Below, in pieces: positions 46-62,383 of a stretch of DNA of 64,000 nt (its first letter is position 1; every line of letters starts with the position of its first letter). The DNA is from an uncultured Alphaproteobacteria bacterium. GTDB taxonomy: Bacteria; Pseudomonadota; Alphaproteobacteria; RF32; CAG-239. Position numbers and translations under genes: made by a program. The stretch covers positions 14-64,013 of the forward strand of contig CABQIK010000002.1 of NCBI GenBank assembly GCA_902464275.1, in the 5' to 3' direction. The notes under the pieces are model-generated. The model saw only the letters and a list, made by a program, of their open reading frames with translations, was not told where the DNA came from and searched no databases.

Positions 46-711
46 ATGAAATCAGAAAACGGACGTTCAATGGTGGAGATGCTTGGCGTGCTTGCGATTA
101 TCGGGGTTTTGTCGGTCGGGGCGATTGCCGGTTACTCCAAAGCCATGTTCAAGTACAAACTCAATAAACACGCCGAAAGTTTTAACATGCTGTTAAATGA
201 GGCAATAAAACTCTATCCTGATTTACGCCGTCATTATGGTGAAGCAGAACGAGATACAACCGGTTTAAACGGCTTTTTTTATAAGACAGGCTCACTGCCC
301 GATGGCGTAATCTATAATAATACAAATAGCGAAATTACTGACGTTTTTAAAAATAAGTATTATTTACGCTATGCTACGGGAAAACGTGCAGACGGCTCTT
401 TTTATCCTTATTATTACATAGAAACATGGTTTAACCGTACCGGCAATAAAATGACTGACCGTGACCGCGAAATTTGCCGCAACTTTGCGCTTGTCGCCAA
501 AGAAAATGCCTCTGATATTCACACATTTGAGGTTCGCTCAATTTCATCTGAAGCCATGGATTACACTGACAGCACTTTATACGGCGATATTTCCGGCAAC
601 ACGACAAATCTGTTACGCAATGCTTCGGTTGTCCAAATAGATAAAATGTGCGACTCTTGCGATTCATCAATAGGTTGCGCCATGGTTCTTTATATCACCA
701 TTGAATACTAA
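46..711 (+). CDS. type IV pilin-like protein, paralog 1 (prepilin N-terminal cleavage/methylation domain)
   Basis: ATG at 46 lies 9 nt after GAGGAG; the track start at 28 is a TTG read-through of the SD. N-terminus MKSENG|RSMVEMLGVLAIIGVLSVGAIAGYSKAMFKYKLNK has Gly-1, Glu+5 and a ~20-aa hydrophobic helix. C-terminus has EICRN..AKEN and a Cys cluster. Confidence 0.8.
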   Translation: MKSENGRSMVEMLGVLAIIGVLSVGAIAGYSKAMFKYKLNKHAESFNMLLNEAIKLYPDLRRHYGEAERDTTGLNGFFYKTGSLPDGVIYNNTNSEITDVFKNKYYLRYATGKRADGSFYPYYYIETWFNRTGNKMTDRDREICRNFALVAKENASDIHTFEVRSISSEAMDYTDSTLYGDISGNTTNLLRNASVVQIDKMCDSCDSSIGCAMVLYITIEY

Positions 712-742: not shown

Positions 743-1005
743 GTGCAAATAATTCCACTCCTGAGGAGGGGGGGCGGCGATAGCCGACAGGGTGGTTAAA
801 TATAAGGTTGGAAAGTAGGTTCAATTTACGTTTTTTATACTCTAAAACAAACATTTATCCTGTTGTGAAATAATAATATAACCACCCCGCCTTCGGCACC
901 CTTCCATAGAGGGGAATTTTAAAAGGCCGGCATATTCCATAGAGGGGAATTTTAAAAGACCGGTATGCTCCATAGAAGTGGAATTTTAAATTGCGGATTT
1001 AAATA
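743..1005. mobile_element. MITE-like non-coding element inserted upstream of pilin paralog 2. It has ~20-bp imperfect terminal inverted repeats, is flanked by direct repeats of acaacttatgca, and contains an internal 33-bp x3 tandem
   Basis: Left end aaaattccactcctgaggagg; right-end motif cc(a/t)ccatagaggggaatttt is the reverse complement. A homologous copy lies at 46095-46285. GC-rich stem segments (ggcggcg, ggggtggtt/aaccacccc) are unlike surrounding intergenic DNA. Confidence 0.5.
904..996. repeat. tandem repeat, 33-bp unit x ~2.8 (ccatagaggggaattttaaaaggccggcatatt)
   Basis: Three consecutive near-identical units read directly. Single-copy versions of the same motif occur upstream of paralogs 7, 8 and 9. 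Confidence 0.85.
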
Positions 1006-4187: not shown

Positions 4188-4910
4188 TTATTTAAAAATT
4201 TGCAAAAACTGTTCTTTATCATTAATCATTAAATACGGATTGCACTGCTTTTCAAGCCCTAACGTAATCGGCTTATCGGGGGTTTTTGCAGTCAGGCGCG
4301 AATATGCCGACGCCAAATATTTTTCCAGAGCCGGAGTTTGCCCGCGCGCCATAGCCATACGCAGAGCTCCCGCCGTATATTCATGTCCGGCATAAAAGGC
4401 AACGTCATCAGGCAGAGCTTTAATTTTTTGCAGGCTGTTCCACATTTGCTCGGGAGTGCCTTCAAAAATTCCGCCGATGCACAAATTAAACAAAACATCG
4501 CCGGTAAATAAAACCTTGTCATCGGGAAAATACCACAAAATGTGTCCGAGCGTATGTCCGGGAGCGGCAATTACCCGCGCTTTGCTTTGCCCTAAAAAAA
4601 ATTCATCGCCGTCTTTAAGAGCTATATCAAGGTCAGCGATAAGTTTTTTTTCAGCCTCGGGGCCGACAATTTTTAAACCGTACCGTTTTTTAAGTTCGGC
4701 ATTGCCGCCAACGTGGTCAAAATGGTGGTGAGTGGTTAAAATGTATGACGGATTAAGCTTTAAGGCCTCGCACATAATTTTTACCGGTTCCGCCTCGGAA
4801 GCATCAACCACCGCCGTTGTTCCGGTGGCTTCATCGGTGATAATATAAGCGTAATTATCCATAACTCCGGCGCGGCACAAAACCGGCTTAATCTTTAAAC
4901 TCATATTCAT
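4188..4910 (-). CDS. gloB: hydroxyacylglutathione hydrolase (glyoxalase II, MBL fold)
   Basis: THHHFDHVGG metal-binding motif; ~240 aa. Confidence 0.75.
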   Translation of the reverse strand: MNMSLKIKPVLCRAGVMDNYAYIITDEATGTTAVVDASEAEPVKIMCEALKLNPSYILTTHHHFDHVGGNAELKKRYGLKIVGPEAEKKLIADLDIALKDGDEFFLGQSKARVIAAPGHTLGHILWYFPDDKVLFTGDVLFNLCIGGIFEGTPEQMWNSLQKIKALPDDVAFYAGHEYTAGALRMAMARGQTPALEKYLASAYSRLTAKTPDKPITLGLEKQCNPYLMINDKEQFLQIFK

Positions 4911-29379: not shown

Positions 29380-29470
29380 CAACTTATGCACAGCGCGGAC
29401 TCGTAAATATTGCAAAAAAAAAACGCGAGCTAAAATCTTCTCAAAATTAACTTTTGAGGAGATTTTAGCT
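29380..29470 (+). promoter_or_regulatory. conserved pilin-family upstream element
   Basis: caacttatgcacagcgcggactcgtaaatattgcaAAAAAAAAAAcgcgagctaaaatcttc...gaggag. Confidence 0.6.
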
Positions 29471-38126: not shown

Positions 38127-38203
38127 GGGTGTGTAGCTCAGGTGGTTAGAGCGTTACGTTGACATCGTAGAGGTCGCAGGTTCGAGTCCTGCCACTCCCA
38201 CCA
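38127..38203 (+). tRNA. tRNA-Val (anticodon GAC)
   Basis: Cloverleaf folded by hand: acceptor GGGTGTG/CACTCCC, D-arm GCTC-AGGTGGTTA-GAGC, anticodon arm TTACG-TTGACAT-CGTAG, T-arm GCAGG-TTCGAGT-CCTGC, then A-CCA. Confidence 0.9.
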
Positions 38204-38550
38204 ATAAATAAGTCCCCTTCACGGGGATTTTTTATTGGTGAAAACAGAAAGAACCTGCGACCTCGTTAGAGGCTTGAGGATAAAAACAGCCGAAGTAACG
38301 GCTGTTTTTACCGCAAAAGGCGTAGTTTTGTTTGCGAGCCAGGAAAGCGGCAGCGACCGCAGCGAGCCAACAAAACAAGTGACCGACGCGCAGTTAGTGA
38401 AAGCTTTTACAAAAATAAGCTTGCGGAGAATGCGGCTAATGTGCAGCAAGTTTTTTTCTGCGGTATACTAAACCGCTACATAAAGAAAAAACTTGCTAGC
38501 AGGAGCCCATTATACGCAGGCGTAAAAGCTTGAACTTACTAAGCTAGACA
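38204..38550. mobile_element. small non-coding tRNA-associated element bounded by 81/82-nt direct repeats (38178-38258 and 38551-38632) that comprise the tRNA-Val 3' end plus its downstream hairpin
   Basis: The second copy of aggttcgagtcctgccactcccaccaataaataagtcccct(t)tacggggatttttt(t)attggtgaaaacagaaagaacctgc is read directly. The internal segment gaggataaaaa-hairpin-ttttt...gaccgcagcgag... is ~70% similar to the tRNA-Thr-linked 275-bp unit. Confidence 0.55.
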
Positions 38551-38652
38551 AGGTTCGAGTCCTGCCACTCCCACCAATAAATAAGTCCCCTTTACGGGGA
38601 TTTTTTTATTGGTGAAAACAGAAAGAACCTGCAATACCGTGGCTTTTGTAAA

Positions 38653-46035: not shown

Positions 46036-46070
46036 CCCCGCATGGTATTATTCACGCGGGGTTTTATTTT
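46036..46070 (+). terminator. rho-independent terminator
   Basis: ccccgcatggtattattcacgcgggg followed by TTTTATTTT. Confidence 0.55.
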
Positions 46071-46094
46071 ACACAATTTATGTACATCTGTAAA

Positions 46095-46285
46095 AATTCC
46101 ACTCCTGAGGAGGGGGGCGGCGCTAGCCGACGGGGTGGTGAAAATATAAGGTTAAAAATTATACTTAATTTACGGTTTTTTGTAATATAAAACAAATATT
46201 TAATACGCTGTTAAACAGTGCAATAACCACCCCGCCTTCGGCACCCCTCCATAGAGGGGAATTTTTTATAGTGCCAATTTACATA
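46095..46285. mobile_element. second copy of the MITE-like element (aattccactcctgaggagg ... ccatagaggggaattttttatagtgccaatttacat) immediately upstream of the paralog 7 promoter
   Basis: ~75-80% identical to 751-1005. Flanked by a degenerate acaatttatgtaca (46069-46083) and an exact acaacttatacaca (46286-). Confidence 0.5.
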
Positions 46286-46378
46286 CAACTTATACACACC
46301 CCAGACTCGTAAATATTGCAAAAAAAAAACGCGAGCTAAAATCTTCTTAAATTTAACTTTTTGAGGAGATTTCAGCTC
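46286..46378 (+). promoter_or_regulatory. conserved pilin-family upstream element
   Basis: caacttatacacaccccagactcgtaaatattgcaAAAAAAAAAAcgcgagctaaaatcttc...gaggag. Confidence 0.6.
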
Positions 46379-51107: not shown

Positions 51108-51127
51108 TAACATTAACAGCACTTTTA

Positions 51128-51156
51128 AGCTCACCGCCAAACGGTGAGCTTTTTTA
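51128..51156 (+). terminator. rho-independent terminator
   Basis: agctcaccg-ccaaa-cggtgagct followed by a T6 run. Confidence 0.65.
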
Positions 51157-51402
51157 TACTTATATTAAAAATGAGAAATTCATATCTCAAAAACAGCTTA
51201 TTTTTCTATTTTTGAGAAACGCATATCTCAAAAATGGTTGACTTTTGTAAAATGAGCATGTGCTTTAGAGCCAAATACTGTTTATGTTTCGGTTCCTGCA
51301 AATAAAAACAAACTATTAATGTGTTGCAAAACAGTGCAATAACCACCCCGCCTTCAGCACCCCTCCTCGGGATGGGAATTTTTTATAGTGCCAATTTACA
51401 TA

Positions 51403-52147: not shown

Positions 52148-52277
52148 TAATAACATTTGAGCGCTATTATTTTTCAACAAAAACAAACAATTAATGCGCT
52201 GATAGATAGTAATGAGACCACCCCGCCTTCGGCACCCCTCCTCGGGATGGGAATTTTTTATAGTGCCAATTTACATA

Positions 52278-53034: not shown

Positions 53035-53143
53035 AAAACCCTGCGGATAGCGAGGCAGATGCACAGTAACATTTTTTTGCCGTGTACGAATAGTTACATA
53101 AGAAAAAAAGTTACAAGCAGATGCCCGCTAGACGCAGGGTTTT
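53035..53143. repeat. ~109-bp nested palindromic intergenic element (RPE-like): outer IR aaaaccctgcg / cgcagggtttt, inner IR cagtaac / gttac
   Basis: Read directly. Shares cctgcgga.a..g.g.cagatgc and a terminal acgcagg with the in-frame leader insertion of paralog 11. Confidence 0.6.
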
Positions 53144-60130: not shown

Positions 60131-60886
60131 ATGAAATCACATTTTAGCCGCTTTTTACACATCACATCGTCATATTCGGGCTTGACCCGAATATCCAGGT
60201 GGAAAAAATTTGCTACTTGGTTTGACCTGGACACTCCGGTCAAGCCCGATAATGACAGCTTGTGTGCTGGTCGGTCTATGGTGGAAATGCTTGGCGTTCT
60301 GGCAATTATCGGAGTCTTATCCGTCGGGGCGATTGCCGGATACAGTAAAGCGATGTTTAAGTACAAATTAAATCAGCATGCACAAGCGGTTAATATGTTG
60401 ATAAATAATGCGCTTTCAATTAAAGATCAATTACAACATAAACTTAACGCGACCACATATTACGGAACCCTGTTGCACAAAATGAATCTGTTACCCGACG
60501 GTATAGAATATATTTCTGATACCACATTAAAAGAAAAGTATTTCAATAGCAATATTATGGTTTATTATATGCATAAGGAAGGTTTTGAAGACTTTGGCGG
60601 AATAGAGTTTAGCTTCAATCCCACAGCACAAGGTGCGGAAGTTTGCCGCAACATTGCATTTGCCGCCAAAGAAAATGCCGCTAATTTATGGGAGCTTGAA
60701 ACATATAAATATTTTAATGACACAACTTCAGGTGACGGTAAATTCATCGGGCATATATACGGTGATTCCTATTGTACAGAAGAAAAAAGCTGCCTGCGTG
60801 ATTTGGACTTAAACAAAATAGAAAAATTGTGCAACGATTGCAATGAAAAACGTTGCATGTTGTATGTTTTGTGGGAAAACCGCTAA
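60131..60886 (+). CDS. type IV pilin-like protein, paralog 10, with a ~123-bp in-frame palindromic insertion in the leader (leader 47 aa instead of 6)
   Basis: MKS[HFSRFLHITSSYSGLTRISRWKKFATWFDLDTPVKPDNDSLCA]G|RSMVEM.... Insertion bounded by the 11-bp IR cgggcttgacc (60177-87) / ggtcaagcccg (60238-48), with an inner IR tccaggt / acctgga. The mature part is subfamily B. Confidence 0.65.
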   Translation: MKSHFSRFLHITSSYSGLTRISRWKKFATWFDLDTPVKPDNDSLCAGRSMVEMLGVLAIIGVLSVGAIAGYSKAMFKYKLNQHAQAVNMLINNALSIKDQLQHKLNATTYYGTLLHKMNLLPDGIEYISDTTLKEKYFNSNIMVYYMHKEGFEDFGGIEFSFNPTAQGAEVCRNIAFAAKENAANLWELETYKYFNDTTSGDGKFIGHIYGDSYCTEEKSCLRDLDLNKIEKLCNDCNEKRCMLYVLWENR

Positions 60887-61687: not shown

Positions 61688-61757
61688 AAAACAAAACAGA
61701 ACATATTAAATTATCGTAACAATACACAAAGAGCCTTGATTTTTCAAGGCTTTAAAA

Positions 61758-62307
61758 TGGTGCCGGTTATGTGACTTGAACACACGACCCACGCTATTTA
61801 GAATGCGGCGAGGATAAAAATTGCTCCGGTGGAGCAATTTTTGACGCAGCGGGATAGTTTGTCGCCAAGGCGGCAAGCGACAGCGCAGGAGCCGCGGCGT
61901 TACAAACAGACTGACCGCAGCGAGTTAGCGATTGACCGCAGGGCAGAGCTTACGAGCCAGAGCTAGCAACGCAAAAATCCCCGTTGCTTTAGCGGCGGGG
62001 ATTTTTACTTAAAAGGTATCTCTTAAAAAAACTGGTGCCGGTTATGTGACTTGAACACACGACCCACGCCATTTAGAATGCGGCGAGGATAAAAATTGCT
62101 CCGGTGGAGCAATTTTTGACGCAGCGGGATAGTTTGTCGCCAAGGCGGCAAGCGACAGCGCAGGAGCCGCGGCGTTACAAACAGACTGACCGCAGCGAGT
62201 TAGCGATTGACCGCAGGGCAGAGCTTACGAGCCAGAGCTAGCAACGCAAAAATCCCCGTTGCTTTAGCGGCGGGGATTTTTACTTAAAAGGTATCTCTTA
62301 AAAAAAC
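61758..62307. repeat. tandem direct repeat, 275-bp unit x2 (61758-62032, 62033-62307). Each unit begins with a 38-nt exact copy, plus ~15 nt degenerate, of the 3' half of the adjacent tRNA-Thr
   Basis: Period measured from tggtgccgg at 61758, 62033 and 62308. Units differ by only a few substitutions. The non-coding body carries two hairpin+T-run structures (ttgctccggtggagcaa+ttttt; aaaatccccg...cggggatttt). Confidence 0.85.

Positions 62308-62383
<76 letters not shown>

Follow-up and report, generated by a model that had tools for sequence, protein, structure and literature searches.

The small non-coding element that precedes several pilin genes in the window (the whole stretch of DNA that was analysed, 64,000 nucleotides in length) is best explained as a non-autonomous, internally deleted derivative of a DUF559 cassette, which has probably spread between paralogous pilin promoter blocks. 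The parent cassette consists of two inverted ~45-nt GC-rich hairpin modules around a gene for a Vsr-like PD-(D/E)XK DUF559 endonuclease. The module present in the window is the same as the one bracketing a DUF559 subfamily across phyla, and its small hairpin is maintained via compensatory changes.

Element copies in the window and architecture of the end module

Two full copies of the element (copy 1, 743–1005; copy 2, 46087–46284) and two right halves are present in the window; 4 of the ~11 pilin paralogs carry the element, the remaining 7 of ~11 being free of it. Copies 1 and 2 are 82% identical over ~180 nt, and the right-half copies share 78–81% identity with the right half of copy 2. With a length of 190–276 bp, the element lies within the size range of miniature inverted-repeat elements of the MITE type (<~500 bp). 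No ORF was seen on reading copies 1 and 2, and no DUF559 remnant was found in the 64-kb window by six-frame hmmsearch. The 21-mers of both ends occur four times each in the window and not once in 100 shuffles, and a scan of the 64 kb with the module profile (nhmmer) returned six matches, with E values from 2e-5 to 6e-12, and no other significant match. An earlier note on this DNA had described a small, non-coding, multi-copy inverted-repeat element, a description borne out by the lack of an ORF and by the six modules detected by profile, and all the features it reported were recovered at or within a few bases of the positions given there.

The layout is most complete in copy 1, in which all features lie on the plus strand except the right module. 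The left box ACAACTTATGCA (729–740) is a direct repeat that forms the left border of a 276-bp indel relative to the empty allele L120, and is followed by the linker GGGTGCAAAT (741–750) between box and module, for which homologous linkers (gctaata, atataaa, gctatta) are found in related genomes. The left module, M, is of the long type (AATTCC, CCACTCC-TGA-GGAGGGG, GGCGGCGATAGCCGAC, AGGGTGGT; 751–796; nhmmer E 6.5e-12) and leads into an AT-rich spacer (797–880), the right ~70 nt of which resemble the DUF559 ORF end of related cassettes. The right module is M inverted and of the short type (ACCACCCC, GCCTTCGGC, A, CCCTTC-CATA-GAGGGG, AATTTT; 881–920, minus strand; E 1.9e-5). A tandem array at 902–990 contains 2.7 repeats of a 33-bp unit made up of the outer hairpin and the linker, with 1–3 units in related genomes, while the right linker ttgcggatttaaat (991–1004) is conserved in element copies and lacking from element-less paralogs. 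The right box ACAACTTATGCA (1005–1016) opens the conserved upstream block of the pilin gene (1003–1101). This box, which is also written ACAACTTATGCACAGC, is the 12-nt repeat at the element borders.

Copy 2 follows the same order, again with only its right module on the minus strand: a degenerate left box (ACAATTTATGTA, 46073–46084), which matches at 9/12 positions, left module M (46095–46139; E 2.7e-10), an AT-rich spacer (46140–46225) that is invariant among 9 strain assemblies, the right module (46226–46265), whose outer hairpin and T-run are terminator-like on the plus strand (46244–46259), and the right box ACAACTTATACA (46285–46296), which starts the pilin upstream block. The flanking repeat, previously given as 13 nt, was found to be 12 nt long and exact in copy 1, while that of copy 2 is imperfect. 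As had been reported, paralogs 8 and 9 carry the right half only, both on the plus strand: one right-half copy (~51301–51381) comprises ~40 nt of spacer and an inverted module at 51342–51380 (E 1.2e-8; 81% identity to the right half of copy 2), and the other (~52176–52256) comprises ~40 nt of spacer and an inverted module at 52217–52255 (E 1.6e-9). The truncated arrangement of the latter recurs in L055, where it separates two tandem pilin genes that apparently correspond to those of the window.

The end module of ~45 nt is composed of AATTCC, a hairpin CCCCTCC/GGAGGGG with a 3–4-nt loop, a second small hairpin and an inward GGGGTGGT, and the right end of the element is the left-end module in inverted orientation. 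As in the terminal inverted repeats of MITEs the two ends resemble each other, and they are merely 64–70% alike because the inner small hairpins differ (left GGCGGCGATAGCCGAC, right GCCGAAGGC); in the clade these read GGCGGCG-NNN-GCCGAC in the long left type and GCC-TTCG-GC in the short right type. The terminal inverted repeats of ~20 bp proposed in the earlier note therefore stand as inverted ends, but not in size or simplicity, since each end is a ~45-nt module with two local hairpins and a GGGGTGGT box.

The folding and covariation analysis suggested in the same note supported structure in these modules. The element folds far more strongly than its shuffles (z −6.0 as DNA and −5.7 as RNA), and the small hairpin covaries in the family: in a gap-free alignment of 48 distinct modules, three of its four pairs have changes on both sides (in 20, 13 and 7 sequences), and 97% of cells are paired, compared with 41–63% in slid-partner controls. 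A perfect small-hairpin stem of at least 4 bp is present in 85–89% of unique sequences and in 29–42% of shuffles, the stems have at least 10 different sequences, and the compensatory variants CCCCTTC/GAAGGGG and CAGTC/GACTG were read in the DNA of Gallionella, Francisella and two other loci. The small-hairpin loops are G-N-A in one orientation and the complement in the other, so that the right module is simply the left one inverted. At either end, the wobble mismatches are biased towards the module strand, whatever the gene sense strand (19 T-G vs 5 C-A), which hints at a two-fold-symmetric role at the DNA level rather than at an mRNA structure.

The DUF559 cassette across phyla

The 21-nt core of the right module was found at at least 104 loci in a scan of one genome per species, and these loci span Bacteroidota, Patescibacteria, Saccharibacteria, Ignavibacteria, Rhodothermales, Proteobacteria and others; four MAGs that share the pilin promoter block are among the core loci listed. 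The window modules conform to the architecture of this family, with profile E values between 6.5e-12 and 1.9e-5 and a core 21-mer that is shared exactly. At six core loci a DUF559 gene (PF04480, Pfam E 5e-28) is directly adjacent to the motif. When ORFs within 2.5 kb of the motif were compared all-vs-all, pilins (in the clade), DUF559 proteins and ABC ATPases were found to recur and nothing else, with no transposase or recombinase recurring near the modules; outside the pilin clade, the DUF559 protein is the sole recurrent neighbour of the motif among the loci listed. The cassette partner with the same ends thus encodes DUF559, a Vsr-like nuclease, and not the transposase expected of the partner of a MITE.

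A protein search retrieved 3283 DUF559 homologues with 60–69% identity across phyla. In 94 of the 118 best homologues (~80%) the protein bears tails that are translations of the modules, in any of three frames, for example NSPPLEGWQAKPDGVV, KFPSxGGV, TTPPLRGTPPxEGN and HPSTGGE. The use of all three frames indicates that the constraint on the module acts on the nucleic acid and not on the protein, and a protein-level constraint was rejected on these grounds. In the reciprocal test, 80 metagenome loci were fetched by protein pattern alone, with a tail-less alignment of the core domain (A2). The GGGGTGGT motif lies within 150 nt upstream of the gene in 74/79 of them (background 0.085 per 165 nt) and ACCACCCC within 150 nt downstream in 70/80 (background 0.051 per 165 nt), and both inverted modules flank the DUF559 gene in 66/79. 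Among distant DUF559 relatives (26–45% identity), both modules were found in 1 of 32. The same architecture was seen on DNA inspection in Gallionella, Francisella and two other loci, and the left module of the window is the same module as that found 5′ of DUF559 genes. The idea of a MITE targeted to pilin promoters needs revising, in that the parent cassette is unrelated to pilins outside this lineage and carries a DUF559 endonuclease gene instead of a transposase gene.

Rfam scans of the window and of 18 loci of other phyla at the gathering threshold, together with a permissive scan of 600–1200, returned nothing but tRNAs and sub-threshold noise, so that no Rfam family matches the modules. 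PADLOC matched no defence-system family, and the closest solved structure to the cassette protein, in which the active-site residues D..VDF..E.DG..H are conserved, is 3HRL. Carriage of the cassette by phages was considered and rejected, as 2.9 million viral contigs contained a single close relative. The searchable literature, where absence is no proof of novelty, yielded no account of the modules or of their association with DUF559.

Within the pilin clade, the cassettes L072, L105 and L110 carry the gene. The order in L072 is a module, 55 nt, an ATG, a module, DUF559, an inverted module, two gene-less doublets and the pilin promoter, while in L105 the cassette is directly followed by the linker, box and promoter block. 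The polarity, with the long type on the left and the short type on the right, is common to the clade cassettes and all gene-less doublets, and the right ~70 nt of the doublet spacer are colinear with the final ~70 nt of the DUF559 reading frame. The spacer profile gave a match of 9.4 bits, above all of 300 shuffles. In pairwise comparison of spacer and gene, z reaches 8.1 in other family members, 2.5 in copy 1 and ~1.0–1.3 in copy 2, and the homology of the window spacers rests partly on transitivity via the family alignment. Judged from these comparisons, the doublets appear to be internal-deletion derivatives, which is well supported for the family and moderately supported for the two window copies individually.

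The modules of the window copies have no DUF559 gene between them, and none turned up in the 64-kb window or, for three of the four related MAGs, in the loci that were fetched; an active partner in this species would therefore be hypothetical. When the empty site of the L110 cassette was sought in the window, its housekeeping flanks had no nucleotide similarity there; orthologous empty sites in the four GTDB MAGs were too divergent, with matches at pilin 5′ ends only.

Pilin promoter blocks, strain alleles and the mode of spread

The ~11 pilin-like paralogs share an upstream block of ~94 nt that starts with the box, and the element-less paralogs have no conservation upstream of the box. The association with pilin promoters pointed out in the earlier note was confirmed in four related MAGs, in which 29 of 36 module cores adjoin a complete promoter block of a pilin gene and the others, two excepted, adjoin a box or sit inside an array. 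Two arrangements are seen: a doublet or right half in the window orientation, 76–112 nt upstream of the block (24 cases, ~17 of them with a left module), and a single short-type module in the opposite orientation between two direct box copies (9 cases). A box lies to the left of ~11/18 doublets, with a conserved 6–10-nt linker before AATTCC, and is missing at 7/18 full copies as well as at the cassettes L110 and L072. The linkers between box and modules are conserved, with 6–10 nt on the left and 3–20 nt on the right. The search for further copies proposed previously thus has a divided outcome, with pilin-adjacent copies in the related MAGs, where ~11/18 full copies have the box on both sides, and copies without pilins or box outside the clade, where no consistent duplication accompanies the modules.

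Same-species strain assemblies, which were found by looking up window proteins in other assemblies, contain copy 2 in identical form in all nine cases. Copy 1 was compared in 10 assemblies and has three alleles, namely the window type, a converted-patch type and an empty type. The patch allele (L117, L118, L119 and L121) has 33 mismatches in the 106 nt of 772–877 (31% divergent) and is identical elsewhere; the patch is a conversion from another copy. In the empty allele L120, found in the one assembly that lacks copy 1, the gap is exactly 728–1003 and the site reads ...AAATTTACAACTTATGCACAGCGCGGACTCG..., so that this is a genuine presence/absence polymorphism, with the 276-bp difference delimited exactly by the flanking 12-nt repeat ACAACTTATGCA. 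L120 and the window differ by five mismatches in the surrounding 2.2 kb, two of which, the SNPs at 1021 and 1023, lie no more than 7 nt from the junction and agree with the element-less paralog at 29380; by our estimate, the chance that two of five mismatches fall in a given 20-nt stretch is ~1e-3. The repeats of copy 1 differ beyond the 12 nt (GGGTGC vs CAGCAC), and the flanks are otherwise as in the empty allele. L249 joins two paralogs, possibly through chimeric assembly at the repeat they share, and was left out.

Taken alone, the L120 allele could reflect gene conversion, a deletion mediated by the repeat or an insertion that duplicated 12 bp. If the element were a true MITE, an enzyme supplied in trans would have inserted it at the box upstream of pilin promoters and generated a target-site duplication of 12–18 bp, as the earlier note had suggested. 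The exact bounding of the indel by the repeat speaks for this possibility, as do the terminal inverted modules, the 29/36 cores adjoining promoter blocks and the box found on both sides of ~11/18 full copies and of most single modules in the four related MAGs, which site-specific insertion would also yield. We nevertheless regard it as unlikely. A duplication of fixed length should abut the inverted-repeat ends, but conserved linkers intervene; 7/18 copies have no left box, nor do the cassettes L110 and L072 have a box, and the repeats of copy 1 diverge immediately beyond 12 nt. Moreover, the two junction SNPs that match the other paralog look like co-conversion, which argues for gain or loss through recombination between paralogous promoter blocks and not through a transposase. 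The right linker, flank and box variants are, in addition, the same in copies 7, 8 and 9, which is expected if element and promoter were duplicated together. Outside the clade there is neither a box nor a consistent duplication at the modules, and no transposase recurs near them. Of the proposal of insertion with target duplication, the repeat as a border of the indel is therefore retained, while spread and loss of the element are better explained by promoter-block recombination than by classical transposition.

For this spread by recombination the following course is proposed. An ancestral cassette would have landed upstream of a pilin promoter and subsequently lost its gene through internal deletion, after which gene duplication and gene conversion may have carried the remnant along with the paralogous promoter blocks or from one of them to another. 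Homology would come from the box repeat on the left and, on the right, from the conserved promoter, leader and 5′ coding region (~250 nt); the same repeats would permit precise loss. The parental cassette itself would, by analogy with homing, most likely be propagated by endonuclease-stimulated copying through host repair; at both ends, the strand that runs into the element would extrude the hairpins as a putative recognition structure. We know of no way in which a lone PD-(D/E)XK nuclease could catalyse insertion.

Regulatory readings, known elements and the cassette in host genes

The suggestion that the element contributes an extra promoter, a structured 5′ leader or a binding platform to the pilin paralogs found no support. 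The element lies upstream of a conserved promoter-like block, related genomes have single modules of opposite orientation at the same place, and 7 of ~11 paralogs do without it. The conserved block contains TTGCAA-N13-GCTAAAAT, which is promoter-like by reading and was not called by the promoter scan, as the scan requires 16–18-nt spacers, and weak promoter-like sites occur at the left junction and in the spacer. A structured RNA that regulates the downstream pilin, such as a long 5′ leader, an sRNA or a riboswitch-like RNA, could account for the strong predicted folding (z ~−5.7), the covariation of the family hairpin, the GC-rich stems within an AT-rich genome and the promoter-like site at the left junction (726–753, 10/12), but is very improbable. 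No curated Rfam model matched by gathering score or in the permissive scan, the modules face either way with respect to pilin genes rather than keeping a fixed orientation, and they also occur as inverted pairs around DUF559 and inside ORFs in all three frames. In addition, the wobble pairs favour the module strand at both ends (19 T-G vs 5 C-A), the element is dispensable, being absent from one allele and from 7 of ~11 paralogs, and the long-range pairing is broken in the converted allele (GGGGCAGT).

Recruitment by the host, in which the element would serve as a terminator, an insulator or a spacer modulating the upstream promoter elements of selected pilin paralogs, is quite improbable. It would agree with the intrinsic-terminator score of the right-module outer hairpin and T-run in copy 2, with the position of 3/4 copies downstream of a same-strand gene and with the invariance of copy 2 across strains; copies 1, 8 and 9, however, have no terminator-like call, the upstream genes have terminators of their own (46036–46061 and 51127–51151), element-less tandem paralogs exist (60131–60886, then 60965), and the element is polymorphic for presence and absence. 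As copy 2 alone scores, a terminator role was rejected. It is extremely improbable that the element is an inverton, that is, an invertible promoter switch giving phase-variable pilin expression. Its inverted repeats surround a ~90-nt AT-rich segment upstream of surface-structure genes, the spacer contains minus-strand promoter-like hexamers (46186–46158, 10/12), and a survey found DUF559 proteins and pilins both to be enriched among predicted programmed-inversion targets (PMC9881135), which for the DUF559 proteins fits their flanking inverted modules. Against such a switch, no inverted orientation was found in the consensus sequences of 9 (copy 2) or 10 (copy 1) assemblies, the variant patch aligns directly at 69% identity and not as the reverse complement, the repeats are imperfect (64–70%), and no recombinase gene recurs nearby. 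A diversity-generating retroelement IMH, a dif/Xer site, a sigma-54 promoter in the box and an intein were dropped on reading as poor fits.

The simplest reading is that the element is selfish or neutral DNA, since it is dispensable, occurs in inverted forms in relatives and varies among strains, and that the host tolerates it because the promoter keeps an intact box next to it. Pilin expression is probably affected little or not at all, and the element could at most act as a weak terminator or insulator, as in copy 2, whose invariance in 9 assemblies would be compatible with a host function. The GC-rich islands before some pilin genes would accordingly be the debris of a mobile element and not regulatory RNA, and the strain data show pilin promoter regions exchanging sequence through gene conversion.

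In its small size, structured inverted ends, occurrence as singles and doublets and possession of a gene-carrying relative, the element behaves like a MITE or a REPIN, but the associated enzyme, DUF559, is neither a transposase nor a RAYT, and the element appears to depart from MITEs also in the lack of a clean duplication. The REP/REPIN and RAYT system of Pseudomonas and E. coli is similar in its short GC-rich hairpin units, single or as inverted doublets, in the inverted pair around a single small nuclease-type gene, in gene-less doublets that outnumber the gene and in hairpins kept by compensatory change; single modules and inverted doublets with covarying hairpins are found here as well. 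However, the gene between the modules encodes a Vsr-like PD-(D/E)XK DUF559 protein (PF04480) and not an IS200-type Y1 transposase, the modules have no GTAG tetranucleotide, many of their copies lie inside genes, and their sequence hardly varies between phyla, in contrast to the species-specific REPs. Bacterial MITEs (Correia/NEMIS of Neisseria, MITEAba12, Nezha) share a length of 100–300 bp, the non-coding, multi-copy nature, terminal inverted repeats, promoter-adjacent positions flanked by direct repeats and a longer gene-carrying relative with the same ends. The present element differs from them in a parent without a recognisable transposase, in a direct repeat of 12–18 bp that has linkers between it and the ends and displays co-conversion, and in a spread that appears tied to paralogous promoter blocks.

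Rickettsia palindromic elements (RPEs) are likewise palindromic and are found in frame inside protein genes at apparently permissive sites, but they have no gene and are confined to one genus, while the copies in the window lie between genes. Homing endonuclease genes, free-standing or borne by introns or inteins and with the Vsr-like I-Bth0305I family among them, resemble the cassette in the small nuclease gene, the high cross-phylum identity, the same position in conserved genes (hsdR, hsdS, Type ISP) and the co-conversion-like signature at one polymorphic site; they have no conserved hairpin inverted repeats around them, and the cassette, unlike intron- or intein-borne homing genes, has no intron or intein features and a putative cleavage specificity. 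The mobile GC clusters and double-hairpin elements of fungal mitochondrial DNA are also GC-rich palindromic hairpins dispersed in AT-rich DNA and sometimes in frame in genes, but are organellar, unrelated in sequence and without an associated nuclease gene.

[quoted passage not shown] The Pro/Gly-rich tails of thousands of predicted DUF559 proteins (NSPPLEGWQAKPDGVV, TTPPLRGTPPxEGN) can be explained as translated hairpin modules, and the module, as a hairpin or cruciform, suggests itself as a candidate substrate of the enzyme. We tentatively propose, at somewhat less than even confidence, that the modules and the DUF559 gene represent an undescribed class of mobile element present in many bacterial phyla, in which a Vsr-like PD-(D/E)XK nuclease with ~45-nt structured inverted ends would occupy sites in restriction-modification genes and shed gene-less modules, the pilin elements being one offshoot. 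Such an element would take fixed positions in hsdR, hsdS, Type ISP, methyltransferase and some housekeeping genes, usually with the frame kept, and might shed single modules and doublets much as RAYT genes shed REPINs. If self-mobile, the cassette would represent a new route of propagation for a PD-(D/E)XK nuclease and a frequent in-frame occupant of restriction-modification genes.

In host genes, the DUF559 frame is open for at least 300 nt on both sides in 32/80 loci. The cassette is found in hsdR at one site in ~20 loci, between ...AVESTLRASG(F/Y) and ESPESYG...GGVVWHTQGSGKS, and its other sites are Type ISP C-terminal domains, hsdS, DNA methyltransferases, a fumC-like gene and a queA-like gene. 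At the cassette position, HsdR homologues without the insert have a hypervariable linker of 10–25 residues, so that survival in permissive loops, as for RPEs, is a sufficient explanation, and splicing of the hsdR cassettes is not indicated. In Gallionella and Francisella, the cassette lies between hsdS and hsdM.

DUF559 cassettes within open reading frames

Among the 80 metagenome loci fetched by protein pattern (L135-L214), 32 show a single open reading frame running through both flanks of the cassette, in which inverted end modules surround the DUF559 (Vsr-like) endonuclease gene. The gene hsdR is a recurrent host (for example, L156, L158 and L189), with the cassette at a constant position; homologs that lack the interruption show a hypervariable linker there. 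Other hosts include Type ISP (for example, L144 and L152), a fumC-like gene (for example, L150/L171) and a queA-like gene (for example, L209). In a public MAG contig, L068, a Nextera adaptor sequence (TCGTCGGCAGCGTCAGATGTGTATAAGAGACAG) stands at the contig start (1-36), and a module is joined directly to it.

Pilin upstream block and exchange among paralogs

A long inverted repeat, GAGCTAAAATCTTCTC...GAGGAGATTTTAGCTC, lies within the conserved block upstream of the pilin genes, at 1046-1098 of the window, and some 10 further pilin paralogs have it at the corresponding place (for example, 46326-46378). One arm covers the -10-like GCTAAAAT, while the other covers the Shine-Dalgarno sequence and the ATG; the repeat may serve as an operator or form a hairpin that blocks translation. 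In the related-genome locus L105, the DUF559 cassette is followed by a box, promoter and leader of pilin type, all complete (4470-4700), and the sole open reading frame driven by this promoter is a non-pilin one of 43 codons, so the pilin promoter block is able to exist without a pilin gene.

Dense mismatch patches in otherwise identical assemblies of the same species indicate that patch gene conversion among paralogs is frequent: one in a pilin 5′ region (window 60-117; 21 differences from L119), and another inside the first element copy (window 772-877; 33 differences from L117, L118, L119 and L121). As a separate observation, one 1720-bp contig (L249, whole contig; one assembly) has the pilin gene of paralog 8 joined without a break to that of paralog 7 and rsfS, and this junction reflects either a rearrangement via the approximately 170-nt shared module/box/promoter repeat or an assembly chimera.

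Other repeats in the window

A 275-bp unit is tandemly duplicated with 99% identity within 61754-62383. An identical 41 nt of tRNA 3′ end begins each unit and likewise begins the tRNA gene next to them (62311-62383, minus strand); this arrangement is reminiscent of attachment sites repeated around an integrated element. Another tRNA, at 38127-38200, has its 3′ end and its terminator-like hairpin repeated 373 nt downstream (copies at 38178-38258 and 38551-38632; whole region 38127-38632). A further short repeat family, with 73-87% identity, is common to the window (38417-38527 and 53037-53138) and the related-genome cassette loci L072 (3388-3497) and L105 (4590-4680), the L105 copy lying just 3′ of the pilin-type promoter that trails the DUF559 cassette.
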